Assembly (NCBI GenBank): GCA_003554945.1
Contig: PWHN01000099.1
Coordinates: 9,289 to 73,288 of the forward strand
DNA: 64,000 nucleotides
Direction of reading: 5' to 3'
Origin: a bacterium
Lineage (GTDB): Bacteria > T1Sed10-126
The translations under genes were made by a program, and so were the position numbers. The first letter of the stretch is position 1. Each line of letters opens with the position of its first letter. Shown piece by piece: positions 4,992 through 42,023 of this stretch. A model generated the notes under the pieces. It did not search any database. It worked only from the letters and a program-made list of their open reading frames with translations, and was not told where the DNA came from.

Positions 4992-5133
4992 GTGTTTGGT
5001 TTTATTTTAAACTCTACCTGTTCTCATTAACAGCAGAGCGCTGGGCGCAGGGCGCGGGGCGTAAAATATCGGATGAGCGAAAGGCGAAGAGCGCTAAGGC
5101 AAAAGAAAAAAGCATAGTCATAGATGATAAGAA

Positions 5134-5878: not shown

Positions 5879-5964
5879 GTGGGAAAGTGTGAAAGTGTGA
5901 AAGTGGGAAAGTGTGAAAGTGTGAAAGTGGGAAAGTGTGAAAGTGTGAAAGTGGGAAAGTGTAG
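5879..5964. repeat. 24-bp tandem repeat (gggaaagtgtgaaagtgtgaaagt) x3 plus a partial copy
   Basis: Direct tandem copies at 5881-5904, 5905-5928 and 5929-5952, with a partial copy to 5964. No spacers, so it is not CRISPR-like. Confidence 0.8.
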
Positions 5965-6004
5965 TTGCGAAGAGGGCGATGGGGCGGTGAGGCGCAAGTT
6001 CGAG

Positions 6005-6125
6005 GGAATCAAGGTCAAAGTCACTGGATTCCGGCTCGGAGGCCGGAATGACGAGCGGGCAATCAAGGTCAAGATCAAAATCAAGTTCAAGAACATGAAC
6101 AAGATTATCAGCACTTAATGAATTG
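6005..6125. repeat. Partial copy of the composite intergenic repeat
   Basis: aatcaaggtcaaagtcactgga, hairpin ttccggctcggaggccggaatgacg (6029-6053), and caaggtcaagatcaaaatcaagttcaagaacatgaacaagattatcagcacttaatgaattg. Confidence 0.5.
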
Positions 6126-6322
6126 AGTCTTCTCCAAAAAGCCCTCTCCCTCGAAGGGGAGAGGAATTAAGCCAAAAACGGCTTGTAGTTTGCGATGACA
6201 GAATCATTGAGGTCTGGGCTGCCGAACTCTTTGCTGATATTACTGACAATTAATGTTAAAATTTTTTTGGTAAGTAATGACGATTAAAAACAGCAGAGGA
6301 ATCTCGAGTTAAGGAAGCGATT

Positions 6323-7201
6323 ATGGAAGCTATAAGTAAAGTTTGGACGGCCTGTTACAGGGTAGCCCGTCTTTTTAAGCTGGACCGGGTTATGTTGTTT
6401 TTTTTCTTTATGACCGGCAGTTACCTGGCCTTTTCTCCCGACGATGTAAATGGCGCGGTAGTTTTATATTTCTTGCCGCTTTCCTTTTTGCTGCACCTGC
6501 TATACATGCTCTATCTGGCGCGGACTAAGAATCCCGTCCCTTCAAGATCCAACGTAGCGGCGCGTAAAATATTTTCTTACATCACACCTGTGCTCGGAGA
6601 ACAGCCCTGGCTGGAACTGATACTGACACTGCTTTTTCTGGCAGTAATTTATTTTACCGGTTTCTACCCCTACTGGTCGCTGTTGTTAGCTTTTTTGTTT
6701 GTGCTCGGAGCTGCTTACCTCCAGTGCCGGAGGTTACTGGGTCCTGTTTTTTTGGGACTGACCTACGCCTTAACTGTGCCCGCCGGAGCTTTGCCGGCCG
6801 GCGGTGAGCTTTTTTCCGGAGAGCTTTTTTTACTTGCCGGGGTGCCCTTTTTCTGGGGGATAGCGTCAGACCTTTTCCGGCAGGCCATCGTTTCCTACCA
6901 CGGTGAAATATCGTCTCAAAATCTACTGGTAGAGATACTGGGTGACGGGGTTATACTCTGGCTGGTACGTATTCTATACGTTGTTGTTTTTCTATGCTGG
7001 CTGGCCTTCGCCCGGTTACAAAATATGACGGATGTTTATCTTGGAGCGGTTGTCCTGCTCGCAATATTTGTCTTTCTCCGACATTTTTATACGGATTACA
7101 GCAGTGTACGTTCAATGAGTTTGCAGCGTCGCCGGATAGGACCGCTGTTTGGTATTGGTTTTTTAATAATAAATTTTTTCCGGGCTATTTATGGTATTTA
7201 G
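6323..7201 (+). CDS. Polytopic integral membrane protein, function unknown
   Basis: 292-aa ORF with several long hydrophobic segments (LFFFFMTGSYLAF, LILTLLFLAVIYFTGFY, LLLAFLFVLGAAY, VVFLCWLAF, etc.). No catalytic motif recognised. Confidence 0.55.
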   Translation: MEAISKVWTACYRVARLFKLDRVMLFFFFMTGSYLAFSPDDVNGAVVLYFLPLSFLLHLLYMLYLARTKNPVPSRSNVAARKIFSYITPVLGEQPWLELILTLLFLAVIYFTGFYPYWSLLLAFLFVLGAAYLQCRRLLGPVFLGLTYALTVPAGALPAGGELFSGELFLLAGVPFFWGIASDLFRQAIVSYHGEISSQNLLVEILGDGVILWLVRILYVVVFLCWLAFARLQNMTDVYLGAVVLLAIFVFLRHFYTDYSSVRSMSLQRRRIGPLFGIGFLIINFFRAIYGI

Positions 7202-7344
7202 TCTTATTTTATGGGTTTGAATTCAAGATTGTCATTGCGGGCCCCGACCCGCAATCCATTTTCAGTTTTTAGTTATTGGCTTCAACCAGTAACTTGCACC
7301 CCGAAACCCGCAACTAATTTTTATGGTTTTGCACGAAAACCGCT

Positions 7345-7580
7345 TAAAATTCAAGATGGTTTCCGGATCGCGCTCCCTACGGTCGCTTGCCCGGAATGAC
7401 GTCAAAATCAAGTTCAAGAGCAAGAGCGAGGTTTTGAAAACTTAATGAATTTGAATTAGCTTTCAGCTTTTGGCTTTGAGCTTTAAGCTGGTGTATTCCG
7501 GGTCGCTTGTTTAGGATAACGGGACACGGGATATTTTGTCAGGATCACGCTAAAAAGTATTAATCGTCTGAAAGGCGGTA
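7345..7580. repeat. Composite intergenic repeat, copy B, immediately upstream of the OFOR alpha gene
   Basis: ttcaagatggtttccggatcgcgctccctacggtcgcttgcccggaatgacgtcaaaatcaagttcaagagc...cttaatgaatttgaattagctttcagcttttggctttgagctttaagctggtgtattccgggtcgcttg...acacgggatattttgtcagg. Near-identical in order and sequence to 5185-5478. Confidence 0.6.
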
Positions 7581-28478: not shown

Positions 28479-31211
28479 ATGGCCGGTTTTCAGGCGATGG
28501 ACAACGCTCTGTCGGGGCTTTTAGCGTCCAGGAGGTCTCTGGACACCACCGCTCACAATATCGCCAATGCGGGTAATAAGAGTTATTCTCGTCAGCGGGC
28601 TGAACTACAGACCAACCGTCCCCAGGTTATTGGCGGGCTCACCATTGGGACCGGCGTTCATGTTGCTGAGATTACCCGGGCGCGCGATCATATGCTTGAT
28701 ACGCGCATGAGACAATCTACATCGACGCTTGATCGATACGATCAGTTAACTACACTTTACGATGATATAGAGACAGCTCTTAACGAACCATCGGACGAAG
28801 GGTTACGGGGAACTTTTGGTGATTTAAATGCCGCCATGCAGGAGCTGGCCAACGAGCCGGAAAACCGAGGCAGCCGGAGGACAGTTATCGGGCAGGCCGA
28901 AACTTTTGCCAGTGGGATAAGAAGGTTTTATCGGACTTTAAATGATATCGGCGGCGGTGAAGGTGAAAACAGTATAAATGTACAGATAGAATCCACTCTG
29001 GATGAGATAAATAATATCGCTGAGAATATTGCTTCGCTTAACAGAGAGATTAATGCCTCTGAGGCCCGCGGGACAAACCCGAACGATTTACTTGACCAAC
29101 GAACCGAATTGACCCGTGAGCTTTCCGAATATATAGACGTTACAGTTCAGGAAACATCGGAACAATTTCGCGTGAACGTTGCAGGTTTCACCCTTGTGCA
29201 GGGCAGTGAGTCCCATGAACTTGACTTTCGGCAGCCCGGCCCCGGAGAACCGCGCAAAATTGTTTATGATGATCATTTGGAAAGTGTTGTCACACCGCAA
29301 AATGGTAAGCTGAAAGCACTTATGGATATGCGGGAGGAAGGCATTCCAGACATTATTGACGATCTTAATGACCTGACTGTACGGCTGGTTGACCGTTTCA
29401 ACGACATCCACCGGAGCGGTTTTGGTATGCAGGAGCAGAGCCGCAACAACTTCTGGTCGGAGCTTCCGACCGCTGATGAGGGGATGTTCAGGTTTGAAGG
29501 TCTGGGAGACGTTGGTGGTGATTATCCGGAACGTAAGGCCGGTCACGTCGATGCACCGGACGAGCTTCTGTTTATTGACGGAGAGTCCGATGACGCCCGA
29601 GAAATGCCCCGTAATTTTGACGGTGACAGCGGGATATCAGATAACCCGGACGGAACGCTTTTAATTAACGGCCATTCAATTAATTACAACATGAAAGAGG
29701 ATTCGCTGGACGACATAATTGACCGCATTAATGAGTCGCCCAACCACGCACAGGCCTACTGGAGCGCCGATGAACGGCTGGTAATCACCGGAACACAGGA
29801 AAATGACTATCGAATTGACGAAATGCGTGATAACGGGCTTTTACTCGACAAAACCAATATTCTTTCCGTCGGCGGAAGCAATCGAAGCAGTTCGAGGTCC
29901 GTGGACGACGTGGAAGAAGACATTGCCTCTGAACTTGAAAGTTTTTTTGATGACGTGGATTATGCCGATGGGACGCTGGAGTTTTCTTCCCAACGTGAAG
30001 AAGACTTTACAATAAATTACGACGCTGAAGAGGATTCTCTGGTGGAATTGGTCGATAGAATCAACAACGCAAGCGAAGCGGCAGATTCAGACGTGGTTGC
30101 CTCGGTTACTAGTAACGACGAACTACGGTTGTTTACTGCTCATGAAGAAGAGCTTGATGAAGACGAAGGTCCTATTTATGGTGCTGGAGAAGAGATAGAC
30201 CTGCATGTTTCAAATGTTCATGACGTTCAACGGGGTGATACTGTTCGAGTCTCTGATAACGATGGAGCCGAAGAAGCTCGTGTTATTCATGTTAATCGTG
30301 ACGACGGTATCATTACGGTAGATGAACTTGACGAAGAGTATGATACTGGCGAAGACGCAGTAGTCCATATCAACAATAAACAGGACGATTTCAGGGTTAA
30401 TGACACGTCTAGTTTTGGTATTGATGATACGGACGTCGACGAGCATGATGACGAAGATTGGTATGGAATATATTTAACAGATGACGATGATTCCAGCAAT
30501 TTTACTGAAGGCGACACGGTGATAGTGGCGAATGACACTGAAACAGCGGGTGATGAGATCCGTGGCCGGGTGATGGAAGTCGACGACGAGGAGGGCATAG
30601 TCTACATTGATGAGGAGGTCGACGCAGCAGATATAGATGAGGGCGCAACAATAAGAAATACCAGGGATGAACATGAGACCCGTAATTTGTTGGCGGGCCT
30701 GGGAATGGACCGGCTTTATCGAGACGACAGCAGCTACGAGTATGCGATCACCGGTCAGTCGCAGCGGCCGCCCCTGGCCGATCAGGCGGCGGCTCTTGAG
30801 GTGGACAGCCTGATTGATGCCAATCCGGATCTGATTGCCGCTTCTGGCGGTGACGATATTGATAACACGGGAATTGCCGACACGATGAAAGGTGAAGGCG
30901 ACGGTTCAGTGATGAACGAACTGTCCAATCTTCACGATAAAAATGTAATGGCCCAGGGTGAAAAATCAATGGACGATCACCTGAGTGAAATGGCCGCTGA
31001 GATTGGCAGCGACTCCTCTCTGGTTCGCCGCGAAAAACGTGCATCTGAACAATTGGTTCATCAGCTTGAGGACCAGATACAGAGCGTCTCCGGCGTTAGC
31101 CTGGACGAAGAAATGAGCAAATTGATACGCGAACAGCAGGGGTTCCAGGCGGCCAGCCGGGTGATTGGGGCAGTGCGTGATATGTCTAATGAAATTATGC
31201 AGTTGATTTAA
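28479..31211 (+). CDS. flgK: Flagellar hook-associated protein 1 (FlgK) with a ~500-aa acidic insert
   Basis: N-terminal rod/hook signature MAGFQAMDNALSGLLASRRSLDTTAHNIANAGNKSYSRQRAEL, and a C-terminal conserved helix (QGFQAASRVIGAVRDMSNEIMQLI). Confidence 0.8.
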   Translation: MAGFQAMDNALSGLLASRRSLDTTAHNIANAGNKSYSRQRAELQTNRPQVIGGLTIGTGVHVAEITRARDHMLDTRMRQSTSTLDRYDQLTTLYDDIETALNEPSDEGLRGTFGDLNAAMQELANEPENRGSRRTVIGQAETFASGIRRFYRTLNDIGGGEGENSINVQIESTLDEINNIAENIASLNREINASEARGTNPNDLLDQRTELTRELSEYIDVTVQETSEQFRVNVAGFTLVQGSESHELDFRQPGPGEPRKIVYDDHLESVVTPQNGKLKALMDMREEGIPDIIDDLNDLTVRLVDRFNDIHRSGFGMQEQSRNNFWSELPTADEGMFRFEGLGDVGGDYPERKAGHVDAPDELLFIDGESDDAREMPRNFDGDSGISDNPDGTLLINGHSINYNMKEDSLDDIIDRINESPNHAQAYWSADERLVITGTQENDYRIDEMRDNGLLLDKTNILSVGGSNRSSSRSVDDVEEDIASELESFFDDVDYADGTLEFSSQREEDFTINYDAEEDSLVELVDRINNASEAADSDVVASVTSNDELRLFTAHEEELDEDEGPIYGAGEEIDLHVSNVHDVQRGDTVRVSDNDGAEEARVIHVNRDDGIITVDELDEEYDTGEDAVVHINNKQDDFRVNDTSSFGIDDTDVDEHDDEDWYGIYLTDDDDSSNFTEGDTVIVANDTETAGDEIRGRVMEVDDEEGIVYIDEEVDAADIDEGATIRNTRDEHETRNLLAGLGMDRLYRDDSSYEYAITGQSQRPPLADQAAALEVDSLIDANPDLIAASGGDDIDNTGIADTMKGEGDGSVMNELSNLHDKNVMAQGEKSMDDHLSEMAAEIGSDSSLVRREKRASEQLVHQLEDQIQSVSGVSLDEEMSKLIREQQGFQAASRVIGAVRDMSNEIMQLI

Positions 31212-31237: not shown

Positions 31238-32899
31238 ATGGGGCGAGTCTCGTTCATAACTCAGTTTGAGCAGCCAAAAAGAAACCTGATGTCAAATACT
31301 AACGATATCCAGCAGACAATGGAACAAATATCGACCGGAAAACAGATTAGCAGACCGTCGGATAGCCCACCTGATATGGTGCGGCTGTTTGAACACCACA
31401 ACGAACAGGGAAGAATTGGCCAGTATAAAGACAATATAACCTCAGCCCGAAATGAACTTGAGACAGCCGAGGGTTCTCTGGGTGAAGTGACTAATCTGTT
31501 GCAACGCGTGCGAGAGCTTTCAGTCCAGGCGGCTAACGATTCTTTAAGTGACCGGGACAGGGAATTGATTAGTGCTGAAGTCGACGAGCGAATTGAGGAG
31601 TTGGTGGATGTTGCTAACAATCGACTGGCCGGGCAGTTCTTGTTTGGAGGCACAGAAACGGAAGACCTCGATCAGTTGTTCACTGTTGAAAGAGATGGCC
31701 AGGATCAAATCCAGGAAGTCCAATTTAACGGCGATTTCAACCCCACGAACAAACAAATTGGTGACGGGGAATTCATTCCCTCCAATTTAATTGGTAGCGA
31801 AATATTTCAGGCAACCAACGAGAGTGCCCGCGGAGATTTTGAAACAGTAGCTTTTGATACTGACCCCGATGTAGATGAATACGATTTTGCCGAAGACCCG
31901 TTAAAGGATCATAACAATATCCCCAAAAGCAAAGGTTACTTTCAGCTCAACGATAGGCAGGTTTACTACGATACAAACGAAGATACTATCATTGATGTCG
32001 CGGAACGTATTAACGACATGGGAATCACGGTTGAGTCAATGTTTGAAGAGGTGCGTGGGGTTCACGAAGATGACGTGGTAGACTTGGAAGATAACGAAAT
32101 AACTATCGCCCAGGATGACCTGCCGGTGGATGTTGAAGTCGGGGATAGGATTAGAATTAAGGATGACGACGGCGACCAGCAAATATTAAGGATAGAAGAG
32201 CTGGAGTTTGATGACGATGAAGATGAGGTTACTATTAGGTTAGACGATGATGTTGATGACCCGGACGATGTTCAAAGCGTTCAATTCATTGATTCGGCCG
32301 GGATTGAACACTCCCCGACTGAAGCGCGGGAACTTGATGAAGACAACCATGACGTCCAGTTCAAGCTCAAGTCTCGAACCCCTCATGAAATATATCTGCG
32401 AGATTTTGACCGCAATCCGGCCAACGGTGACGGCGAGCAGGGGCTGCTGAATGATCTTGGAATAATCGGCCAGAACGGCGAACCCCCTGAACCTCGGGAG
32501 AGACAAAATTATCCTGTTGAATACCACGACGGTGCTTTCCGGGAAGGAAAATCAATTTTTGATACCTTAATTGATTTCAGAAATACCCTCCAGGGTGAGC
32601 CGCCGGCAGACGTTGAAAATGAGGCGGAGGGTTTCCAGCAGTCTATTGAAGAGATTCAACTGGGGGTCGAAAACATACTGGTTCACCGCAGTATTGCCGG
32701 TGCTCGTGTTAACAGATTGGATTCGGCTGAAAACCGGATTGAAGACCGGGAATTGCATACGCAGGAATTAATATCACAGCTTGAGGACGCTGATCTGGCG
32801 GAAGTAATAACTGAACACGAGCGTTTGCGGACAGTTCAGGAGGCTTCGCTTCAAATGTCCTCAAATATTATGCAACTGAGCCTGGCAAATTTTATCTAA
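31238..32899 (+). CDS. flgL: Flagellar hook-associated protein 3 (FlgL) with an acidic insert
   Basis: TGKQISRPSDSPPDMV, and LQRVRELSVQAANDSLSDRDRELISAEVDERIEEL, which is the flagellin-type N-domain. C-terminal LRTVQEASLQMSSNIMQLSLANFI. Confidence 0.75.
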   Translation: MGRVSFITQFEQPKRNLMSNTNDIQQTMEQISTGKQISRPSDSPPDMVRLFEHHNEQGRIGQYKDNITSARNELETAEGSLGEVTNLLQRVRELSVQAANDSLSDRDRELISAEVDERIEELVDVANNRLAGQFLFGGTETEDLDQLFTVERDGQDQIQEVQFNGDFNPTNKQIGDGEFIPSNLIGSEIFQATNESARGDFETVAFDTDPDVDEYDFAEDPLKDHNNIPKSKGYFQLNDRQVYYDTNEDTIIDVAERINDMGITVESMFEEVRGVHEDDVVDLEDNEITIAQDDLPVDVEVGDRIRIKDDDGDQQILRIEELEFDDDEDEVTIRLDDDVDDPDDVQSVQFIDSAGIEHSPTEARELDEDNHDVQFKLKSRTPHEIYLRDFDRNPANGDGEQGLLNDLGIIGQNGEPPEPRERQNYPVEYHDGAFREGKSIFDTLIDFRNTLQGEPPADVENEAEGFQQSIEEIQLGVENILVHRSIAGARVNRLDSAENRIEDRELHTQELISQLEDADLAEVITEHERLRTVQEASLQMSSNIMQLSLANFI

Positions 32900-33092: not shown

Positions 33093-33590
33093 ATGCGGAA
33101 AGGGTTTGATCAAACCGTGAAAATTAAGTCGAAGCCCTACGGCGAAATTGAAATTGACAGGGATAAAATAGTTACAGTCCGAGGCGGACTGTTTGGGTTT
33201 GAAGACCAGGAGGAATACGTAATCATAGGAAGAGAGAGCGAACAGCCCTTTGAGTGGTTACAGGCGGTAAACGATCCCGACCTGGCTTTTGTTGTAGTGC
33301 CTCCTAACCTCATACGACCGGATTACGAGCTTTCTATTCTGCCGGAAGATCTCAAGCAGATAGAAGCGGATTCGACCGACGATTTGATGCTTTATTCGAT
33401 CGTGGTTGTGCCACAAAATCCGGACGCGATGACAATTAACTTTCGCGGACCGGTAATAGTAAATCAGGAAAATTTTCTGGCCAAACAGGTGATTAACCAG
33501 GTAGATGAATATACGGTGCGTCATCGGGTTCTTGATGAGCTGGAAGCTTCCGGTCGGCAGGGACTGGTCGCGAAGGGCGGGAGCGAGTAA
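33093..33590 (+). CDS. fliW: Flagellar assembly factor FliW
   Basis: [49 protein letters not shown] is typical of FliW. Confidence 0.85.
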
Positions 33591-33841
33591 TGCTTGTTCT
33601 TACCCGAAAAGTTGACGAACGCGTTATGATTGGCGACGACATTGAGATTATGATTGTCGATCAGGACGGCGATCAGGTCAAACTGGGAATTGAAGCACCG
33701 CGTGAGATACCGATTCATCGCCGCGAGGTTTATGAAGAAATCCAGAAAGAAAACATCGAAGCAGCCCGCGCAAGCGGGGAGGAGACCCGTTCTGTGGCAG
33801 AGTTTCTTAAACAACAAAGTGAAGAAAAAAAAGAATCTTAA
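33590..33841 (+). CDS. csrA: Carbon storage regulator CsrA
   Basis: [51 protein letters not shown]. Its start overlaps the fliW stop. Confidence 0.9.
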
Positions 33842-33849
33842 AAAAATAT

Positions 33850-33878
33850 TTGACAAACGGCGATTGATGTCCGATAAT
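33850..33878 (+). promoter_or_regulatory. Sigma70-like promoter (TTGACA-N17-GATAAT) immediately after the csrA stop
   Basis: TTGACA at 33850-33855, a 17-nt spacer, and GATAAT at 33873-33878. Confidence 0.45.
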
Positions 33879-33884
33879 TAGATT

Positions 33885-34021
33885 GACATAAGAAAAAGTC
33901 AGCAAGGATGCTGGCTGGAGGACAATTTTTTCACATGGAGGTTTGATAATATTACACTTGTAAACTTAGCCTATTCTTGGTGTGCAGTCTCGGACTGCGC
34001 AGGCAGGGGTAGGTTTTTTTT
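33885..34021 (+). ncRNA. Candidate small RNA with multiple GGA motifs (possible CsrA-titrating sRNA)
   Basis: Bounded by the promoter at 33850-33878 and a T8 run at 34013-34020 preceded by GC-rich structure. Contains the hairpin gtcagcaAGGAtgctggc with AGGA in its loop, plus ctGGAGGAcaa, catGGAGgtt and caGGcaGGGGtaGG. Confidence 0.3.
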
Positions 34022-34185
34022 GTGCACCATGTTGTATACGCGCTTTTTTTGGGGCTCATGAGAGTTAAAGTTGGATTAGTAGTATTTGTAGTAACTCTGG
34101 ATTGATCTTTTTTCTTTTTTGCTCTACGGGGTAAACGGTTCGACGTCATTTGACGGCCGGACTGAAGCTCTTTGACATTCAAATA

Positions 34186-34210
34186 TAGTCGATAGGTTGA
34201 GACAGCCTGG
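34186..34210. repeat. Upstream arm of the inverted repeat bracketing flagellin gene 1 (partner at 35315-35340)
   Basis: tagtcgataggttgagacagcctgg versus downstream cccgggctgtctcgcctatcggctat. About 22 of 25 positions are complementary, with one indel. Confidence 0.6.
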
Positions 34211-34350
34211 ACGCCGGTATGGTGGTTGTATCCTCCGCCGCTTTAGTGGGGAACAACTGCTGTTACCGGACTGTTTTACCACGTTTTTTTTACATCATTA
34301 GTGCTTGACTGCACAGGACTATCAGTACAATTTAGCACAATCTTAGCACA

Positions 34351-34390
34351 ATTCGAATCAAGGACGATTCGATCTTAACTCCAGGAGGGA
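34351..34390 (+). promoter_or_regulatory. 5'UTR CsrA-binding-type hairpin (tcgaatc-AAGGAC-gattcga) plus SD ccaggaggga for flagellin 1
   Basis: Perfect 7-bp stem with a GGA-containing loop at 34353-34372. A second GGA lies in the SD at 34381-34390. The same module occurs before flagellins 3 and 4. Confidence 0.6.
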
Positions 34391-34401
34391 GTGTTCTACC
34401 G

Positions 34402-35295
34402 ATGGGTGGTATGTTTAGAATTAACACTAACGTTCAGGCTACATTTGCACAACGACAGTTACACAGAAGTTCTGGTGATCTTGACCAGGCGCAGGAGCGT
34501 CTGTCCAGTGGTTTACGTATTAACGTGGCTGCTGATGACGCCGCTGGACTGGCCATTGCTGAGAAATTGAGCATGGCCGGCCGTGGTCTTGACCAGGCGC
34601 AGTCTAACGCTCAGGACGGTATATCAGTACTTCAGACCGCCGAGGGTGGTCTTGAGTCTATTGGTGACGACCTGCAGCGGATGCGTGAGCTGGCTGTTCA
34701 GGCAGCTAACGACAGCTTGACTGACGATGACCGTGAACTGATCCAGACTGAGATTTCTCAGCTGGTAGATGAGGTTGACCGAACCGCCTCCACGGTTCAG
34801 TTTAACCAGCGTCAACTGCTTACCAATCAATTTGGTGAAGTTGACGAGGCTGGACGAGCTACTGCTGGAGAGGCATCACTGACTTTCCACATTGGCGCTA
34901 ACCGTGACGAGACAATCACGGTGGCCATGGGAGACGGTCAAGCTATTCAGACGGCTACCTCGCAAGCGCTTGGTATTCGTGTCGACGACGCCCCGATAAG
35001 CGTTGAATCACGTGAGGGTGCTGAATCGGCGATCGAAACGGTTACCCAGGCGATTAACGAAGTTTCGGAAACTCGCGCTAACATTGGTGCCGTTCAGAAC
35101 CGTCTCGAGGGAGCTGTTGACTTCCTGCAGATCCAGGGAGAGAACACCGAGGCTTCCGAGAGCGCGATTCGTGACGCTGACATTGCCGCGGAAGCGGTCA
35201 ACCAGACCCGAGCTAACATCTTGACTCAAGCCGGTACTTCCGTGCTTGCACAGGCCCAGCAGACGCCGCAGATGGCGCTGCAGTTGCTCGGTTAA
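34402..35295 (+). CDS. fliC: Flagellin (paralog 1, 297 aa)
   Basis: MFRINTNVQATFAQRQL...LSSGLRINVAADDAAGLAIAEKL and a C-terminal ANILTQAGTSVLAQAQQTPQMALQLLG. Confidence 0.9.
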   Translation: MGGMFRINTNVQATFAQRQLHRSSGDLDQAQERLSSGLRINVAADDAAGLAIAEKLSMAGRGLDQAQSNAQDGISVLQTAEGGLESIGDDLQRMRELAVQAANDSLTDDDRELIQTEISQLVDEVDRTASTVQFNQRQLLTNQFGEVDEAGRATAGEASLTFHIGANRDETITVAMGDGQAIQTATSQALGIRVDDAPISVESREGAESAIETVTQAINEVSETRANIGAVQNRLEGAVDFLQIQGENTEASESAIRDADIAAEAVNQTRANILTQAGTSVLAQAQQTPQMALQLLG

Positions 35296-35314
35296 CTTTT
35301 TTAGTTCTTTTTTA

Positions 35315-35340
35315 CCCGGGCTGTCTCGCCTATCGGCTAT
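35315..35340. repeat. Downstream arm of the flagellin-1 inverted repeat
   Basis: Reverse complement atagccgataggcgagacagcccggg matches 34186-34210. Confidence 0.6.
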
Positions 35341-35402
35341 CTTTTATTTTTACGAAAAACTGCTGGTGCGGTTTATGCCACAGCGGATGGGAATGAGATG
35401 AA

Positions 35403-35792
35403 ATGAATCATGGGACCGGAGCGATTGAGGGACCCGAGTTTCAAAATAGTTTGATCCAAAATAATAATTTGAACAGAGCCGAAACTACGGCTGAAACAGA
35501 CCGACCGGATAACTCTGCCGGAGCAGCGGTCGAGCGACCGGTTGCTGAGACTACCGTAAGTGTAGAGGATCAGGCAGTTGCCGAAGCTGTTGAAGAACTC
35601 GATCAGGCGGCCGCCGAAGCCTCTTTTTACGGGATTGATTTTAATATCTTGCCCGATGACAACCTGGTCCAGGCACGGTTGATCAGCCAGGAGAATGAGG
35701 AGTTGATTCGCGCTATCCCGCCTGATGAACTGCTGGAAATAAGGCAGCGCGTTGACGCTTTCATAGGACTGTTGTTTGATGTGACAAGATAA
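35403..35792 (+). CDS. flaG: FlaG-like flagellar protein
   Basis: C-terminal IRAIPPDELLEIRQRVDAFIGLLFDV matches the FlaG IPPEELL signature. Lies between flagellin genes. Confidence 0.6.
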   Translation: MNHGTGAIEGPEFQNSLIQNNNLNRAETTAETDRPDNSAGAAVERPVAETTVSVEDQAVAEAVEELDQAAAEASFYGIDFNILPDDNLVQARLISQENEELIRAIPPDELLEIRQRVDAFIGLLFDVTR

Positions 35793-35861
35793 CAAAACTT
35801 CATCGCCGCCCGGGTCACGGAAGACCTGGTTAAAAATCTCCAGGAGGGAGCTGAAGCCGCT

Positions 35862-36752
35862 ATGGGCGGTTTATTTCGTGTTAACACCAATACGCAGGCG
35901 ACCTTTATTGAGCGCCAGCTCTATCGCAATACCCGGCAACTGGATCGGGCGCAGGAACGTCTGGCCAGTGGCTTCAGGATTAATCGGGCAGCTGACGATG
36001 CAGCCGGGCTGGCTATTTCTGAAAAGTTGCGCATGGCCGAGCGCGGCCTGAGTCAGGCTCAGGCCAACGCTCAGGACGGGATCTCACTCCTTCAGACTGC
36101 CGAAGGTGGTATGGAGACAGTTACAGAAGATTTACAGAGAATTCGTGAGCTCAGCTTACAAGCGGCCAACGACAGTCTTACCGACTCCGATCGTGAATTA
36201 ATTCAGGCTGAAATAAATCAACTTGTCCAGGAGATAGACCGTACGGCCTCTACCGTGCAGTTTAACCAGCGTCAGCTGCTTAAAAATGATTTTGGAACTG
36301 TTGATGCTGGCGGTCGGGTCCAGGATGACGGCCGAGCTTCCCTTGCTTTCCACATTGGTGCCAACCGTAACGAAATTATCAGGGTTACTACAAACGAATT
36401 AGGAACTACTACCTCACGTTCTTTGAACCTGAGAACCGAGGATACTTCGCTAAGTATCAGTACACGCGAGGCCGCCGAGTCGGCAATCGAAGTGGCTACC
36501 CGGGCAATTAACCAGGTCTCCCGGCAGAGGGCTAATATTGGAGCACTTCAGAATCGACTCGAGGGTGCGGTCGATTTTCTCCAAATTCAAGAAGAAAATA
36601 CTCAACGTGCCGACAGCCGCATACGTGACGCTGACATCGCCCGGGAGACGATGAATATGACCCGCTCTCAAATTCTTGTCCAGGCCGGCACCTCGCTGCT
36701 TGCCCAGGCCCAGGAACTGCCCCGCACCATCCTCCAAATACTGGGCATCTAA
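35862..36752 (+). CDS. fliC: Flagellin (paralog 2, 296 aa)
   Basis: MGGLFRVNTNTQATFIERQL...LASGFRINRAADDAAGLAISEKL and a C-terminal QILVQAGTSLLAQAQELPRTILQILGI. Confidence 0.9.
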   Translation: MGGLFRVNTNTQATFIERQLYRNTRQLDRAQERLASGFRINRAADDAAGLAISEKLRMAERGLSQAQANAQDGISLLQTAEGGMETVTEDLQRIRELSLQAANDSLTDSDRELIQAEINQLVQEIDRTASTVQFNQRQLLKNDFGTVDAGGRVQDDGRASLAFHIGANRNEIIRVTTNELGTTTSRSLNLRTEDTSLSISTREAAESAIEVATRAINQVSRQRANIGALQNRLEGAVDFLQIQEENTQRADSRIRDADIARETMNMTRSQILVQAGTSLLAQAQELPRTILQILGI

Positions 36753-37034
36753 CTTTTTTCTTTTTTCTAAAGCTATCTTTGAAGTTTTTAGATTCCAGTT
36801 CCAGGTTTTAACTCGCAACACGCAACACGCAATAAGGTTTATGGTTTTGAAGTTTGATTTCAACTTTAAACTAAAAACTATAAACTGGAAACTAATTTTA
36901 TCCCGCAACTACACTTTTACACTTTCCCACTTTCTAACTTTCCCACTAACAAATTTCTCCACTCAAGATTTTTCCTCCGTAGTCGATAATTAAGAACAGG
37001 ATTATTACGAGACGACAGGGATCTTTGACATGTG

Positions 37035-37063
37035 AATACAGCCGGCGAACGGGGACCTGGCCC
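37035..37063. repeat. Upstream arm of the inverted repeat bracketing flagellin gene 3 (partner at 38061-38090)
   Basis: aatacagccggcgaacggggacctggccc. The downstream reverse complement is aatacagccggcgaacggagacctggcccg (29 of 30). Confidence 0.75.
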
Positions 37064-37093
37064 TTTTGTAGCATCAGTACGACCGTTGAACTT

Positions 37094-37132
37094 CGAATCA
37101 AGGATGATTCGATTCTAAAATTCCAGGAGGGA
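37094..37132 (+). promoter_or_regulatory. 5'UTR hairpin tcgaatc-AAGGAT-gattcga plus SD ccaggaggga for flagellin 3
   Basis: Same module as at 34351-34390, with one loop substitution. Confidence 0.6.
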
Positions 37133-37143
37133 GTGTTCTAATT

Positions 37144-38043
37144 ATGGGAGGTCTATTTCGAATCAACACAAACGTGCAGGCCACGTTCTCTCAACGTCAA
37201 CTGCACAGAAGTTCCGCTGATCTTGACAGAGCACAGGAGCGTTTGTCCAGCGGGTTAAGGATTAACGTCGCCGCAGACGATGCCGCAGGACTGGCTATTG
37301 CTGAGAAGTTAGAAATGGCTGGCCGCGGTTTAAGCCAAGCCCAGGACAACGCTCAGGACGGTATATCCGTCCTGCAAACCGCTGAGGGTGGTCTTGAATC
37401 CATTGGAGACGACCTGCAGCGGATGCGTGAGCTGGCCGTGCAAGCTGCTAACGACAGTTTGACTGACGACGATCGTGAACTGATCCAGACTGAGATTTCT
37501 CAGCTGGTCGATGAGATCGATCGCACAGCTTCCACGGTGCAGTTCAACCAGCGTCAGCTTTTAACCAACGAGTTTACAACCGTTGACGAATCTGGCGAGG
37601 CCCAAGAAGGTGAAGGCCCGGGTTCGCTTTCTTTTCACATTGGAGCGAACCGTGACGAGGTCATTACCGTGGACGTGGAAGACGACATTCAGACCGCAAC
37701 TGCTACAGCACTCGGTATTCGCGACGCTGACACGGGAGAACCCGTGAGCGTTGAAACCCGAGAACTTGCCGAATCCACGATCCAAACCGTTTCCGAGGCG
37801 ATTAACGAGGTCTCGGAAAGTCGGGCCAACATCGGTGCCGTTCAGAATCGGCTCGAAGGTGCCGTCGATTTTCTCCAGATTCAGTATGAGAATACCGAGG
37901 CATCGGAGAGCGCGATTCGTGACGCTGACATTGCCGAAGAAGCTGTTAACCAGACAAGGGCCAACATTTTGACCCAGGCCGGTACTTCCGTTCTTGGTCA
38001 GGCACAGCAAACGCCACAGATGGCCCTGCAGCTTCTGCAGTAG
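37144..38043 (+). CDS. fliC: Flagellin (paralog 3, 299 aa)
   Basis: MGGLFRINTNVQATFSQRQL...; N- and C-termini near-identical to paralog 1. Confidence 0.9.
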   Translation: MGGLFRINTNVQATFSQRQLHRSSADLDRAQERLSSGLRINVAADDAAGLAIAEKLEMAGRGLSQAQDNAQDGISVLQTAEGGLESIGDDLQRMRELAVQAANDSLTDDDRELIQTEISQLVDEIDRTASTVQFNQRQLLTNEFTTVDESGEAQEGEGPGSLSFHIGANRDEVITVDVEDDIQTATATALGIRDADTGEPVSVETRELAESTIQTVSEAINEVSESRANIGAVQNRLEGAVDFLQIQYENTEASESAIRDADIAEEAVNQTRANILTQAGTSVLGQAQQTPQMALQLLQ

Positions 38044-38060
38044 TTTTTTACTGACCTTTC

Positions 38061-38090
38061 CGGGCCAGGTCTCCGTTCGCCGGCTGTATT
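38061..38090. repeat. Downstream arm of the flagellin-3 inverted repeat
   Basis: cgggccaggtctccgttcgccggctgtatt, 18 nt after the stop codon. Confidence 0.75.
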
Positions 38091-38125
38091 TTTGAGCTGA
38101 TTTTCTCCAAGGGAGTTTTATTTCC

Positions 38126-39088
38126 ATGAAAGTAACTTTTTCTTCTGAACAGCCGCTTGAAATTGAAGCGCCTGACCCCGAGCAGAAGCTGGGAGATTAT
38201 ATCGATTTTGTAAATAAAAAATTAAGCGATGTAAACCGGTTTATTTTTTCTGCCGAGGTCGACGGCGAACAAATTACAGAAGAACGCTGCCGGCAGAAAT
38301 GTGATTCGTTTGAAGAATTAAAGCTGGAAGCCCGCTCTTTCGAAGAGATGACCATCGACACCATTGGCCGCTTAGGAGCTTATTGCCAGGAATACCTGGC
38401 TAAACTTCCACAGGTCATTGACGAGTGGAAAAAAAAGAGCGACGAAGAGAAAAATGCATTGCGTCGTCAAGTGCTTGAAGCTATAAATCTGGCCGGTAAG
38501 GTTCTGGACTCGATTGATGATTTTCTTGACGTCGCAGTGGAAGAACATGACACAATAAAAAGCAGAACAGAAAAATTGGCGGGGCAGTTTCGTGAGGCAG
38601 GGAGAGAAGAATTGAAGTCCTTGCTAACAGAGCAGGGGAGCGAATATTTTTCTGAATTATTTGACCACCTCAGAGCTGTACTGGATTACGTTGACGGGCA
38701 AAAAGATGCTGAGTCAGACCAGCTTTCACGTCTGGGCCGCCAGCTCGATGAACTGCACGAAGAACTAACCAACCTTATTAATAAATTCCAGGGCGGGGAT
38801 ATTGCCGACGCTTACGACCAATTGACTGATCGAGCTACTGAAATAGATGAATTGCTTGCTGTTATCGGCGGGTTGGACAAGACTGGTTTCCTCAAACGTA
38901 ATTTCACACCGGAAACTCAGGACGAATTAAGTCAGGCCCATACAGAACTTCACCGCGGTCTCACCGAATTACTTCAGGCCGTGGAGGAGCGCGATCCGAT
39001 AATGGTCTGCGACATACTTGAGTATGAGTTTTTACCCTACCTTGAATCTCTCCAAAAACTCTTTGGCAGCGTCGACGAAGCGGAATAG
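38126..39088 (+). CDS. Hypothetical acidic coiled-coil protein embedded in the flagellin array
   Basis: 320-aa ORF with no recognisable motif. It sits between flagellins 3 and 4 and lacks the CsrA-type leader. Confidence 0.5.
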   Translation: MKVTFSSEQPLEIEAPDPEQKLGDYIDFVNKKLSDVNRFIFSAEVDGEQITEERCRQKCDSFEELKLEARSFEEMTIDTIGRLGAYCQEYLAKLPQVIDEWKKKSDEEKNALRRQVLEAINLAGKVLDSIDDFLDVAVEEHDTIKSRTEKLAGQFREAGREELKSLLTEQGSEYFSELFDHLRAVLDYVDGQKDAESDQLSRLGRQLDELHEELTNLINKFQGGDIADAYDQLTDRATEIDELLAVIGGLDKTGFLKRNFTPETQDELSQAHTELHRGLTELLQAVEERDPIMVCDILEYEFLPYLESLQKLFGSVDEAE

Positions 39089-39093
39089 ATCGC

Positions 39094-39122
39094 TAAAGAA
39101 TTTTTTTAATCAAACCGATAAT
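39094..39122 (+). promoter_or_regulatory. Sigma28 (FliA)-type promoter candidate for flagellin 4
   Basis: TAAAGAAT-N13-CCGATAAT, against the consensus TAAAGTTT-N11-GCCGATAA. Confidence 0.4.
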
Positions 39123-39172
39123 ATAACTCAAAGCTAAGTACTATACCTCAATAAAACTATGTTCTCTGACAA

Positions 39173-39208
39173 TTAAATACGGCCGGTGTGACGTTTCCTC
39201 TCCCGGAG
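39173..39208. repeat. Upstream arm of the inverted repeat bracketing flagellin gene 4 (partner at 40298-40331)
   Basis: aaatacggccggtg is a perfect 14-nt core. An imperfect extension CCTCTCCCGGAG matches CCTCTCGCCGGTG in the partner arm. Confidence 0.6.
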
Positions 39209-39273
39209 TTGTTCTTTTTTTAGCATTTATTTATCTTTTTTATCCTTTTTGGAACAGCTCTCTGCTGTTCCAA

Positions 39274-39313
39274 TCGAATCAAGGACGATTCGATTACACT
39301 CCATAGAGGGAGG
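39274..39313 (+). promoter_or_regulatory. 5'UTR hairpin tcgaatc-AAGGAC-gattcga plus SD agagggagg for flagellin 4
   Basis: Same module again. It is preceded by another palindrome, ggaacagctctctgctgttcc (39251-39271). Confidence 0.6.
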
Positions 39314-39321
39314 CATGTACT

Positions 39322-40290
39322 ATGTCAGAACTTTTTCGTATTCAGAATAACATTGCCGCTCAGTTTGCACAGCGGCAACTTAACCGCTCTGATTCTACAT
39401 TAAACGAAGCCCAGGAAAGGCTTTCCAGTGGTTACAGAATTAACACCGCCTCGGACGATGCTGCCGGTCTTGCTATTTCGGAACGACTGCGAATGGCAGA
39501 CCGAGGCCTCGGTCAGGCGGAGAGAAACGCACAGGACGCTATTTCAGTTCTGCAGACCGCCGAAGGAGGCCTGGAAACTATTGGCGATAACCTTCAGCGG
39601 ATGCGCGAACTGGCCGTTCAAGCGGCTAACGACAGCCTGACCTGGGATGACCGGAGGTTGATCCAGACTGAGGTTGATCAGCTGGTCGAGGAGATCGATC
39701 GTAGTGCCTCGAGCGTGCAGTTCAACCAGCGACAGCTTCTTAAGAACGACTTTGGAACTGTCGACGCGTCTGGTGAAACTGAAGAAGGTTCGGGATCATT
39801 AGTCTTTCACGTCGGGGCTAACCGGGATGAAGTCATGGAGATTACAACCGATGAACTGCGAACCATGACTTCGGTTAACCTTGGTCTCCGACTCACGGAA
39901 GACCGGAATGAGATCATTGAATATCCCGGCGGTACTCTCTTGTATGGCCCCGACGATCAGTATTATGCTCTCAGTCTTTACCGGGACTCAGCCGGTAATT
40001 TGGATCGTAATGCTGCTGAATCCGCTATCGAGCGGATTACCCGGGCCATTGACCAGGTTTCAGACTCGAGAGCACGAATTGGTGCTGTTCAGAACCGTGT
40101 TGAGTCTACTATTGACTTCCTGCAACTTCAGCAGGAGAACACGCAGGCTTCTGAAAGCAGAATTCGTGACGCTGATTTGGCGGAAGAGTCCGTCCGACGG
40201 ACTCAAGCCGACATCCTGATGCAGGCCGGTACTTCCGTGCTTGCCCAGGCTAATCAGCAGCCTCAACTGGCATTACAGTTGTTGGCTTAG
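39322..40290 (+). CDS. fliC: Flagellin (paralog 4, 322 aa, divergent with a central insert)
   Basis: LSSGYRINTASDDAAGLAISERL and a C-terminal ADILMQAGTSVLAQANQQPQLALQLLA. Confidence 0.85.
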   Translation: MSELFRIQNNIAAQFAQRQLNRSDSTLNEAQERLSSGYRINTASDDAAGLAISERLRMADRGLGQAERNAQDAISVLQTAEGGLETIGDNLQRMRELAVQAANDSLTWDDRRLIQTEVDQLVEEIDRSASSVQFNQRQLLKNDFGTVDASGETEEGSGSLVFHVGANRDEVMEITTDELRTMTSVNLGLRLTEDRNEIIEYPGGTLLYGPDDQYYALSLYRDSAGNLDRNAAESAIERITRAIDQVSDSRARIGAVQNRVESTIDFLQLQQENTQASESRIRDADLAEESVRRTQADILMQAGTSVLAQANQQPQLALQLLA

Positions 40291-40297
40291 AAAGAAT

Positions 40298-40331
40298 TTT
40301 CACCGGCGAGAGGTTCGCCACCGGCCGTATT
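40298..40331. repeat. Downstream arm of the flagellin-4 inverted repeat
   Basis: ttcaccggcgagaggttcgccaccggccgtattt, starting 8 nt after the stop. Confidence 0.6.
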
Positions 40332-40415
40332 TCTTTCCTTATTTTCGCCTTTTCGCTATACTTACAGACCACCGATTACCGATCACCGAATACTGACACA
40401 GAAGGAGCCTTTAGT

Positions 40416-42023
40416 TTGCAATATCCGACTCAAATTATTAAAACCGTTGTTAATAATTTCAAAAATCAATATCCAGAAATTGAGCAAATTCCCGCCGGTA
40501 TAGAACCGCCACCCGAAACAGAAACCGGGGATCTGGCCGTTGCCTTACCAATGCGAGCAGCCGGTGCTCTTCAGCGCTCCCCCCGGGAAATTGCCACCGA
40601 GCTGTCAGAAATGCTAAAGCAACGCTCTGAACTCAAATCGGTTGAAGTGGCCGGTCCCGGTTTTGTTAATTGTACCTTCACTGATTCTTTTCTCTTAAAA
40701 AGCGTTGCGAAGATTATCGAACAACAAACGGTAGAATTTCCTGAACCTGGTTCAAACAAACGGGTGCTGATAGAATTTGTTAGTGCTAACCCGACCGGAC
40801 CGTTGCACGTGGGCCACGGTCGCGGGGCTATCTATGGCGACGTGCTCGCCCGTTTGTTTGAAGTCTTTGGCTATCAGGTTGAGCGGGAGTATTACGTCAA
40901 TGACGGTGGTTCTCAAATTGAGCGGCTCGCCGAAAGTATGCTCTTGCGGTCCCGGCAGGCAGAGGGCGAAGCTGTGGAATTATCCGAGGACCACTACCGG
41001 GGCGACTATTTAAAAGAAATAGTCGCTGATTCTGGTATTAGTCCCGGGGATTCTATTGAAACAGTTGCCCGCCGGGGAAAAGAGGAAATAATTGCCTGGA
41101 TTTTTTCGACCCTTGAACGGTTCCGGATAAATTTTGACAACACTGTTTATGAATCTGAAGTGGCACCTCCAGAGGCGGTAGGTGAGCTGGTCAAACGTCT
41201 GGAAGCGGAGGGGCTGGTTCGCCGGGAAGACGGCGCTACTTACTTGTCCACCTCGAAGCTGGGCGACGATAAGGACCGCGTGCTCATACGCAGCAACGGT
41301 GAGCCGACATACTTTGCCAATGACCTGGTCTATCATCTGGACAAGTATAACCGGGGAGCTGATCAGTTTATAGATATCTGGGGGCACGACCATCACGGCT
41401 ATCAGCAGCGCCTTCGCTCGGGATTACAGGCGCTGGGCTGCGCTACTGAACGGTTGGAGATCGAGCTCTATCAGCTCGTCGACCTTTACCGTGGAGGTGA
41501 GCCGCTGCAGATGTCTACCCGCCGGGGTGAATTTGTCACTCTGGACGAGTTGATTGATGAAGTCGGGGTGGACGCTGTTCGTTTTAACTTTTTGACTAAA
41601 AATCATAACAGTCCGCTTGATTTTGATATTGAGGTCGCCACCTCGCAGAGCGAGGACAATCCCGTCTATTACGTTCAATACGCTCACACCCGCCTGGCCG
41701 GCATTCTACGAAAAGCCGACGGGCAGTTTGACGACGTTGAACCGGAGGATAGTCTCTCCGAAGCTGGCCACAGACTGGTCTTCAAAGCGCTCGGGTTTGT
41801 TCCCTTCCTGCAACAGACTCTGGCCGGCCGTGAACCGCATCGTATAACCTTCTGGCTTCGAGAGTTGGCCCGCCATTTTCATACCTATTATACTGCGCAT
41901 CGGGTTGTTGACCCGTCGGCGCCGGCGATTAGTGCCCGCCGGCTGGAGCTGGTTAAATTTCTCAAAATAATCTTTAAGACCGGCCTGGACCTGCTCGACG
42001 TTAATGCGCCGGAGCGCATGTGA
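40416..42023 (+). CDS. argS: Arginine--tRNA ligase
   Basis: Class-I HIGH region (ANPTGPLHVGHGRGAIYGDVLARL), the ArgS anticodon-binding C-terminus, and ...QMSTRRGEFVTLDELIDE replacing KMSKS as in ArgS. Confidence 0.9.
   Translation: MQYPTQIIKTVVNNFKNQYPEIEQIPAGIEPPPETETGDLAVALPMRAAGALQRSPREIATELSEMLKQRSELKSVEVAGPGFVNCTFTDSFLLKSVAKIIEQQTVEFPEPGSNKRVLIEFVSANPTGPLHVGHGRGAIYGDVLARLFEVFGYQVEREYYVNDGGSQIERLAESMLLRSRQAEGEAVELSEDHYRGDYLKEIVADSGISPGDSIETVARRGKEEIIAWIFSTLERFRINFDNTVYESEVAPPEAVGELVKRLEAEGLVRREDGATYLSTSKLGDDKDRVLIRSNGEPTYFANDLVYHLDKYNRGADQFIDIWGHDHHGYQQRLRSGLQALGCATERLEIELYQLVDLYRGGEPLQMSTRRGEFVTLDELIDEVGVDAVRFNFLTKNHNSPLDFDIEVATSQSEDNPVYYVQYAHTRLAGILRKADGQFDDVEPEDSLSEAGHRLVFKALGFVPFLQQTLAGREPHRITFWLRELARHFHTYYTAHRVVDPSAPAISARRLELVKFLKIIFKTGLDLLDVNAPERM

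Follow-up and report, generated by a model that had tools for sequence, protein, structure and literature searches.

To our knowledge, few bacterial messenger RNAs (mRNAs) are known to pair the untranslated regions (UTRs) at their 5΄ and 3΄ ends, namely hbs, icaR and RNAIII, and in each of them the helix is short and known from a single species. In Bacillus subtilis, a 14-base-pair (bp) interaction between the two UTRs of hbs modulates cleavage by RNase Y (Braun, Durand and Condon 2017, PMC5737220), and in Staphylococcus aureus 5΄–3΄ UTR interactions have been reviewed for icaR and RNAIII (PMC7821165). In Escherichia coli, RNAs have been stabilised by engineering inverted repeats at their flanks (Nakashima et al. 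2006, PMC1635301). In this work we have used computational approaches to analyse a 64-kb stretch of contig PWHN01000099.1 from the bacterium T1Sed10-126 (the window), which carries a flagellar late-gene cluster with all its genes on the + strand. Three flagellin genes of this cluster, fla1 (type a, 34402–35295, 297 amino acids; orthologues match Pfam Flagellin_N and Flagellin_C), fla3 (type c, 37144–38043, 299 amino acids) and fla4 (type d, 39322–40290, 322 amino acids), each lie between two complementary arms of their own, one in front of the leader and one just past the stop codon. Our results show that the pairing of these arms is maintained by selection and that selection acts on the sense-strand RNA. 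The best explanation, which we hold with moderate confidence, is that an end-to-end helix defines and protects the ends of the flagellin mRNAs.

Cognate arm pairs and their conservation

The arms were delimited by a gapped, pairing-aware alignment of the 330 nucleotides (nt) upstream of each gene against the 120 nt downstream of it. In fla3 the 5΄ arm (37034–37063) and the 3΄ arm (38062–38091) pair over 30 positions, 28 of them Watson–Crick and 2 G-U, and a repeat search returned essentially this pair (37035–37063 / 38062–38090, 29 nt, 97% complementary) as the best inverted repeat of the region. The arms of fla1 (34181–34210 / 35316–35344) form 25 Watson–Crick and 3 G-U pairs with one mismatch and one bulge, while those of fla4 (39175–39217 / 40291–40332) combine a perfect 14-nt core (39175–39188 / 40319–40332), also returned by the repeat search, with an imperfect extension inwards to 39217 and 40291. 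The 5΄ arms end 192 (fla1), 81 (fla3) and 105 nt (fla4) ahead of the ATG, upstream of a leader hairpin of the form TCGAATC-AAGGAY-GATTCGA, and the 3΄ arms start 1–21 nt past the stop codon, the largest of these distances being that of fla1. A first-pass annotation of this DNA had described the three gene-specific pairs, and all three are present to within a few bases; it had put the 5΄ arm upstream of the hairpin, as we find it, and 100–215 nt ahead of the start, a range that is slightly off for fla3. It had also taken the pairs not to be copies of one repeat. Their sequences do differ beyond the outer 12 bp, although the outer 12–16 bp are homologous among the three (AAATAYRGYCGR / YCGRCYRTATTT).

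With plain DNA scoring the pairs of fla1, fla3 and fla4 reached 32, 53 and 28, against 13–20 for all but one of the other 35 genes of the window. The sole outlier (6323–7201, score 31) owes its score to dispersed palindromes resembling repetitive extragenic palindromes (REP-like) that lie in both of its flanks. When all 5΄ regions were compared with all 3΄ regions by the same scoring, cognate combinations gave 26–53 and non-cognate ones a mean of 17.4 (standard deviation 4.2), the high non-cognate scores being those of orthologues from close species. The fourth flagellin of the cluster, fla2 (35862–36752), had been reported as lacking a pair, and it does score at background, as do the stand-alone flagellins encoded elsewhere in the related genomes (14–18 for both). 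Among the intergenic regions of the cluster, complementarity is confined to pairs of regions flanking the same flagellin gene; we also looked for brackets around flaG-fla2 and around the DUF8042 gene, and their scores were at or near background.

The window was compared with the syntenic loci of six further assemblies, which represent about five other uncultured relatives of the same lineage (loci are cited by L numbers). Rho proteins are 76–96% identical within this clade, and identity then falls to about 65% against proteins of diverse phyla. Ancestrally the cluster ran from csrA through a type a flagellin, flaG, a type c flagellin, DUF8042 and a type d flagellin to argS. A cognate arm pair is present at all of the type a, c and d genes examined in the window and the six assemblies (18 genes, 15 of them non-redundant), located 0–24 nt past the stop codon and 81–192 nt ahead of the ATG. 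RNA-aware scores of these pairs were 39–78, compared with 22–28 for fla2, its orthologue and three stand-alone flagellins, and with 27–29 for outgroup flagellins (48–51% identity). Two outgroup flagellin genes that have no arms carry instead an ordinary local hairpin and T-run past the stop codon. As for fla2, it is a lineage-specific addition found directly after flaG only in the window and its closest relative (L001/L002), and it has no promoter, no leader or CsrA hairpin and no arms.

How have the arms changed among these species? The segment CGATAGG / CCTATCG of the fla1 arms becomes CGGTAGG / CCTGCCG in L003 and CGACAGG / CCTGTCG in L012, and the segment AACGGGGACC / GGTCTCCGTT of fla3 becomes AACAGAGGCC / GGCCTCTGTT in L003. 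The outer 16-bp helix was aligned for 11 genes drawn from all three types; as controls, the partner was shifted by 1–3 columns and 500 shuffles were made. In this alignment 86% of the cells are paired, against 36–50% with a slid partner, two-sided change occurs in 8 of the 16 pairs, and the observed covariation score was reached by none of the 500 shuffles. For the type c helix (30 pairs, five species) the corresponding values are 88% of cells paired and two-sided change in 9 of the 30 pairs, where 3.6 were expected, again with 0/500 shuffles. Over both helices the slid-partner controls gave 35–50% pairing against the 86–88% observed. These covariation counts are supportive and carry no formal probability, since the sequences are few and related. 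The helices span 24–44 positions with few mismatches or bulges, enough for largely uninterrupted double-stranded RNA of about 20 bp or more. Even between species that share only 60–70% flagellin identity and whose arm sequences have wholly turned over, the pairing is retained: the arms of type a in L014, of types a and d in L016 and of type d in L013, L017 and L021 bear no recognisable resemblance to those of the window, yet each pairs with its own partner over 24–44 positions. Pairing is maintained by selection, through compensatory change. The first-pass annotation had proposed looking for compensatory changes in orthologous loci; the arms co-vary not only across orthologues but also across paralogues.

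These data also bear on the view that the arms are non-functional remnants, either duplication scars or a mobile element's terminal repeats, whose likeness would be preserved by gene conversion between the arms. Such an origin would suit the dispersed REP-like palindromic repeats, which give a comparable score (31) at an unrelated gene, and it would suit the homology of the outer 12–16 bp among the three pairs, which would mean that the arms were duplicated along with the gene. However, terminal repeats should recur as the same repeats in several genomic copies, whereas each arm pair is unique to its own gene, and the REP-like family has a different sequence. The pairing moreover outlasts a full turnover of the arm sequence between species, the changes are compensatory and biased to G-U, and arms are missing from fla2, a recent addition, and from the stand-alone flagellins. 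We regard this origin as highly improbable.

Selection on the sense-strand RNA

For the non-redundant helices, mismatches were counted under a scoring in which all mismatches were equal and G-U was not favoured. This gave 15 G-T against 3 A-C mismatches (binomial p = 0.0075). A G-T mismatch between the arms corresponds to a G-U pair in the sense-strand RNA, while an A-C mismatch corresponds to a G-U pair only on the antisense strand, so the excess of the former shows that selection acts on the sense-strand RNA. DNA-level processes do not predict a bias of this kind. The first reading of the sequence had called for co-folding of the UTR pairs. The three presumed mRNAs were folded at full length (1.1–1.2 kb), and the long-range helices were kept, with 25, 30 and 34 pairs and a mean pair probability of 0.97–0.99 (fla1, 0.97; fla4, 0.97 for the 34 pairs of the minimum-free-energy fold).

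Flagellar phase variation by DNA inversion is known from Salmonella hin and from the Clostridioides difficile flgB switch, and the arms might likewise be sites at which single flagellin cassettes are inverted or deleted, giving phase or antigenic variation. Whole genes are indeed flanked by inverted repeats here, and the fla3 and fla4 promoters lie outside the repeats, so that an inversion would turn the gene off. Nevertheless, the pairs differ in sequence and offer no common site to a recombinase, and their tolerance of G-T but not of A-C is an asymmetry without meaning for DNA. All 18 cluster flagellin genes of the window and the six assemblies, which are consensus assemblies, are co-oriented with their neighbours, and no inverted copy of any of them was found there. 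A Pfam search of the window's open reading frames (ORFs) of at least 180 amino acids found no recombinase or invertase domain, the only matches of a related kind being RuvA and RuvB, and the syntenic loci of the six assemblies likewise show no recombinase. Arms of 25–30 bp are at the lower limit for RecA-dependent exchange. We find inversion or deletion of cassettes hardly credible.

The first-pass annotation had left two meanings side by side. Long-range 5΄–3΄ pairing of each flagellin mRNA is now supported by covariation, by the G-U bias, by the positions of the promoters and by the folds; recombination or inversion sites, or duplication scars, are not supported, the pairs being different, the orientation uniform and no recombinase having been found in the 64-kb window, and arms of 25–30 bp whose divergence preserves complementarity through G-U pairs do not resemble recombination sites in DNA. 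The second of these had been thought to gain from an octamer in the fla1 arm, GTCGATAG, which resembles a sigma-28 -10 element. This octamer is not conserved. It becomes GTCGGTAG, GCCGACAG and GCCAGCAG in orthologues, each time with matching changes in the 3΄ arm, and we reject it as a promoter element.

A proposed end-to-end helix in flagellin mRNAs

Promoter-like motifs lie upstream of the arms. Boxes of the form TAAAG-N-CCGATAA precede the 5΄ arms of types c and d by a few tens of nucleotides; the putative sigma-28-type promoter of fla3 reads TCAAGA-N15-GTCGATAA (36963–36989) and that of fla4 reads CTAAAG-N16-CCGATAAT (39093–39122). The CGATAA box is kept in the type c orthologues, among which that of L012 has the full TAAAGTTT-N11-GCCGATAA, and the fla4-type box is kept in the type d orthologues. 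Because these boxes lie upstream of the arms, the 5΄ arms of fla3 and fla4 would be inside the 5΄ UTR. The consensus scan for terminators gave no strong one between the arms.

Just upstream of the 5΄ arm stands a second motif, TCTYTGA(C/A)A, which is the only strongly sequence-conserved element of the unit. It reads TCTTTGACA directly 5΄ of the fla1 arm (34169–34177) and again in front of the fla3 arm (37022–37030), and TCTCTGACA in front of the fla4 arm (39163–39171). The motif occurs at this position in 13 of the 15 non-redundant type a, c and d genes, and in the remaining two the arm, by our delimitation, opens with CTTTGAAA or CTGACA. No complementary partner for it was found at the 3΄ end. 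It may serve, in single-stranded form at the base of the helix, for recognition or cleavage; the RNase Y of B. subtilis prefers a G/A step in AU-rich, unstructured RNA (PMC11780869). We also considered its TTGACA as the -35 box of a sigma-70 promoter and discarded this possibility, a -10-like hexamer being present 16–18 nt downstream in 0/15 genes. The stand-alone flagellins have neither the TCTTTGACA motif nor paired arms, and share a different promoter-like element, CTTGAC...TATAGTGGATATTTT (L015 5680–5715; L019 9840–9875).

At the other end of the unit, most 3΄ arms give way to a run of T. In fla1 the run overlaps and follows the arm (35342–35351), with 9 T in the 12 nt past the last G/C of the arm; in fla3 the arm runs into a short T-run ending at 38093; in fla4 a T-rich tail extends the arm to 40339, and arm and tail together are the sole terminator-like signal ahead of argS. 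The 12 nt past the last G/C of the 3΄ arm hold on average 7.7 T, compared with 4.0 in control intergenic 12-mers, and 9 of the 15 genes have at least 8 T, where 6.5% would be expected. The 5΄ arm opens with AAATA, which matches the T-run. A U-tract directly 3΄ of a stem is what an intrinsic terminator shows, but the two halves of this stem lie about 1.0–1.15 kb apart and are not joined by a short loop. The T-run is weaker in the type c genes, which are followed after 70–115 nt by the co-oriented DUF8042 gene, and this would fit partial read-through into that gene. In the consensus scan of the window, the 3΄ flanks of fla1 and fla4 yielded no local terminator and that of fla3 only a weak 6-bp hairpin over the stop codon. 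A strict local-terminator scan of the other loci is too insensitive to inform, as it misses terminators that are evident in the outgroups, and we treat the absence of local terminators as a weak argument. In several genes the last codons of the ORF form a small hairpin followed by T6 across the stop codon (for example CTGCAGCTTCTGCAG-TAG-TTTTTT; window 38026–38049, +; L013 4169–4193; L017 3635–3662). Located immediately within the long-range helix, this is another signal that weakly resembles a terminator.

What could such a helix do for a flagellin mRNA? We propose that each ancestral flagellin mRNA (types a, c and d) pairs its own two ends, the arm in the 5΄ UTR, directly after the UCUYUGACA motif, binding the arm that starts within about 25 nt of the stop codon. 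The resulting GC-rich helix of 25–40 bp, with a U-run after it, would close the putative CsrA-binding leader, the ribosome-binding site and the ORF in a loop of about 1 kb. The helix may set the 3΄ end, either as a terminator-like stem and U-tract for which the 5΄ UTR supplies one half, or by halting 3΄ exonucleases. It would also sequester the 5΄ region and block 5΄-dependent decay, perhaps once trimming at the conserved motif has removed any 5΄ tail. The paired termini would make the mRNA resistant to exonucleases and insulate it from flaG-fla2, DUF8042 and argS, the outcome being a stable, monocistronic and highly translated flagellin mRNA whose CsrA sites and ribosome-binding site are left free for FliW-CsrA control. 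The strong, GC-rich part of the helix mostly starts about 10 nt or more past the stop codon, so terminating ribosomes would not be expected to melt it. An effect on stability or termination, and the involvement of any nuclease, are what we infer from this arrangement.

The main rival of this explanation is that the helix is chiefly a substrate of RNase III, either as a processing stalk like those of ribosomal RNA precursors, at which the flagellin mRNA is released from a longer transcript (fla1-flaG-fla2, fla3-DUF8042), or as a signal for decay that keeps flagellin mRNA levels down, as in icaR. The 25–40 bp of nearly perfect double-stranded RNA exceed two helical turns, and close co-oriented genes without a visible promoter follow fla1 and fla3. 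Many long-range (>100 nt) intramolecular mRNA duplexes are cut by B. subtilis RNase III (PMC11780869), and the icaR 5΄–3΄ UTR duplex is cut by RNase III as well (PMC7821165). On the other hand, a role in decay fits badly with the very high demand for flagellin, and neither the T-run after the 3΄ arm nor the single-stranded motif before the 5΄ arm is a feature of RNase III sites. We think it unlikely that this is the chief role, which is partly compatible with end protection, since the ends could stay joined through the two halves of the stalk after cleavage.

The helix could also work as a split intrinsic terminator, a gene carrying the 5΄ half of its terminator stem in its own 5΄ UTR, with RNA polymerase freed at the U-run only if the newly made 3΄ arm meets, about 1 kb upstream, a 5΄ arm that is available. 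Whether transcription ends there, and whether the gene is thereby insulated from flaG-fla2, DUF8042 and argS, would then hinge on the state of the 5΄ UTR, and the released mRNA would be born with paired termini. This version seems to us rather improbable.

A further proposal would be closed-loop translation, in which the helix brings the stop codon near the ribosome-binding site and ribosomes re-initiate on the same mRNA, raising flagellin output. The geometry would allow it, with the stop codon, 0–24 nt from the 3΄ arm, brought within about 80–190 nt of the start codon, and with the stop codon mostly separated by about 10 nt or more from where the strong helix starts. We know of no bacterial precedent for closed-loop re-initiation of this kind, however, and it leaves both the T-run and the conserved motif unexplained; the length of the leader between arm and ATG also varies, from 81 to 192 nt. 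Such a role is possible, without support, and we rate it as very unlikely.

Several points weigh against the end-to-end helix as a device that defines and protects mRNA ends. RNase III would find an ideal substrate in a perfect helix of about 30 bp, which could thus destabilise the mRNA instead of stabilising it. The transcript 5΄ and 3΄ ends are deduced only from sequence motifs, and in type a (fla1) no sigma-28 box was found between the terminator of a putative small RNA and the 5΄ arm, so that transcription of the fla1 arm is assumed by analogy with types c and d. The proposal leaves the TCTYTGACA motif without a clear role. Type c of L003 and L014 and type d of L021 have a weak T-run or none, and these intergenic regions are rich in T in any case. 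Thermodynamic folding takes no account of ribosomes or of the kinetics of co-transcriptional folding. Finally, the sample comprises about six uncultured species, some of them close kin, and the counts are not fully independent.

Neighbouring elements and comparison with known systems

The flagellins follow flgK (28479–31211), a flgL-like gene (31238–32899), fliW (33093–33590, with a Pfam FliW match in the window) and csrA (33590–33841), and Pfam also recognises CsrA and FliW in the orthologous loci. The hairpin TCGAATC-AAGGAY-GATTCGA and CCAGGAGGGAG precede fla1, fla3 and fla4. The hairpins (34353–34372, 37093–37112 and 39273–39292) present AAGGA in the loop, that of fla1 resembling the CsrA site BS1, and lie inside the closed loop. 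With fliW and csrA adjoining the flagellins, a GGA-presenting hairpin and a GGA-containing Shine-Dalgarno sequence, the leader appears to be of the FliW-CsrA-controlled type, with putative CsrA sites. The CCUGG in the type a and c arms is complementary to the CCAGG of the Shine-Dalgarno region, and we considered whether the 5΄ arm could act as an anti-Shine-Dalgarno sequence that is freed by the 3΄ arm. We set this idea aside, as folds of the 5΄ UTR alone pair in this way only in the type c gene of L012 and the type d gene of the window (2/15). An Rfam scan of the window gave no match at the gathering score, the sole E-value match being a weak CsrB next to csrA (E = 0.56). A scan for the leader hairpin (TCGAATCAAGGAYGATTCGA) in a genome collection returned only two related metagenome-assembled genomes that had already been identified and one unrelated match, and the same scan in metagenomes returned four matches, all unrelated. 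The lineage is rare in the scanned collections.

Directly after csrA lies a small-RNA-like unit (window 33850–34025, +) with a TTGACA-17-GATAAT promoter, a hairpin with AAGGA in its loop, an invariant CACATGGAGGTTTGATAA and a long terminator stem followed by T8. It is kept in five genomes, and 5 of the 41 pairs of its consensus structure show two-sided change. Its only Rfam match is the weak CsrB-like one. This unit could be a CsrA-binding small RNA of the FliW-type system or an attenuated fla1 leader. Another long stem followed by T8 occupies the fla1 leader between the 5΄ arm and the CsrA hairpin (34213–34292, +) and resembles a terminator or attenuator placed within the 5΄ UTR; its T-run is interrupted in L001.

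Between the flagellins, flaG (35403–35792) precedes fla2, and the DUF8042 gene (38126–39088) separates types c and d in all related loci. Its orthologues match Pfam PF26154, and one of them also matches TP0873_N. Because it has no visible promoter of its own, the gene is probably expressed by read-through past the fla3 helix. The cluster ends at argS (40416–42023). Dispersed intergenic repeats are found at 5100–5420, 5880–5965, 6020–6140 and 7220–7520 of the window, and also at 36770–36960. They comprise palindromic TTCCGGCTCGGAGGCCGGAATGACG units, a longer ttaatgaatttgaattagctttcagcttttggctttgagctttaagctgg unit and a GTGGGAAAGTGTGAAAGTG tandem tract, and a reverse complement-like copy of this tract stands between fla2 and fla3.

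How does this arrangement compare with what has been described? The Salmonella hin/hix and C. difficile flgB switches use short identical repeats that flank a promoter or leader segment and are served by a dedicated recombinase. Inverted repeats at flagellar genes are what they share with our locus, where the sequences are instead specific to each pair, a whole gene is flanked, the mismatches have an RNA-type bias and no recombinase was found nearby. Like an intrinsic terminator, the flagellin unit runs from an A-rich segment through a GC-rich stem to a U-tract, and it stands at the site where the outgroups have their ordinary terminator, but its stem halves are about 1 kb apart and there is no short hairpin loop. 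Precursor stalks of ribosomal RNA (rRNA) and the RNase III duplexes of B. subtilis also pair the flanks of a long RNA over hundreds to thousands of nt through a helix of more than 20 bp (PMC11780869). The RNA enclosed in the flagellin case is, in contrast to the rRNA stalks, a protein-coding mRNA with a regulatory leader, and a U-run ends the helix.

Closer to the flagellins are the mRNAs that have complementary sense-strand segments upstream of the start and downstream of the stop of the same gene, an arrangement that we also find here. In icaR and RNAIII, intramolecular pairing between the 5΄ UTR and the 3΄ UTR gives double-stranded RNA cleavable by RNase III, and in icaR a 3΄-UTR anti-Shine-Dalgarno sequence (UCCCC) blocks the ribosome-binding site and promotes decay (PMC7821165). 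The flagellin helix lies upstream of the CsrA hairpin and of the ribosome-binding site, both of which would remain free, and consistent anti-Shine-Dalgarno pairing was not found in the folds. In hbs, as in the flagellins, UTR segments of one very highly expressed mRNA pair with each other, and there the pairing adjoins a single-stranded RNase Y site and modulates the access of the ribonuclease (PMC5737220). The hbs interaction is of 14 bp in an mRNA of about 400 nt, concerns one gene in one species and was proven by mutation (PMC5737220), whereas the flagellin pairing extends over 25–40 bp, spans about 1 kb, occurs in three paralogues of about six species and is supported by covariation only; its 3΄ arm leads into a U-run and its 5΄ arm is preceded by a conserved motif.

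Our literature search found no account of paired ends in flagellin mRNAs or genes, or of inverted repeats that flank them. The 5΄ UTR–3΄ UTR interaction is known as a kind, but this flagellin variant is not. New in it are the much greater length of the helix, the enclosure of a whole gene, the occurrence in three paralogues and the phylogenetic covariation, and new as well are the U-run at the place where relatives have a normal terminator and the conserved flanking motif. If our proposal is right, it would be the clearest comparative evidence that natural selection has built mRNAs with paired termini for a very highly expressed protein. It would also offer a clonable test case for the termination of transcription by long-range helices, for end-pairing against exonucleases and for the interplay of both with FliW-CsrA control of flagellin. 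The engineered RNAs with paired termini resemble these mRNAs in that flanking inverted repeats make stabilising double-stranded ends; they are synthetic antisense RNAs in E. coli (PMC1635301), of which the flagellin mRNAs would be the natural, conserved counterpart among mRNAs. The design rule that these genes suggest, with an arm, the leader and ORF, and a second arm followed by a U-run, could be reused to stabilise mRNAs in engineered bacteria.

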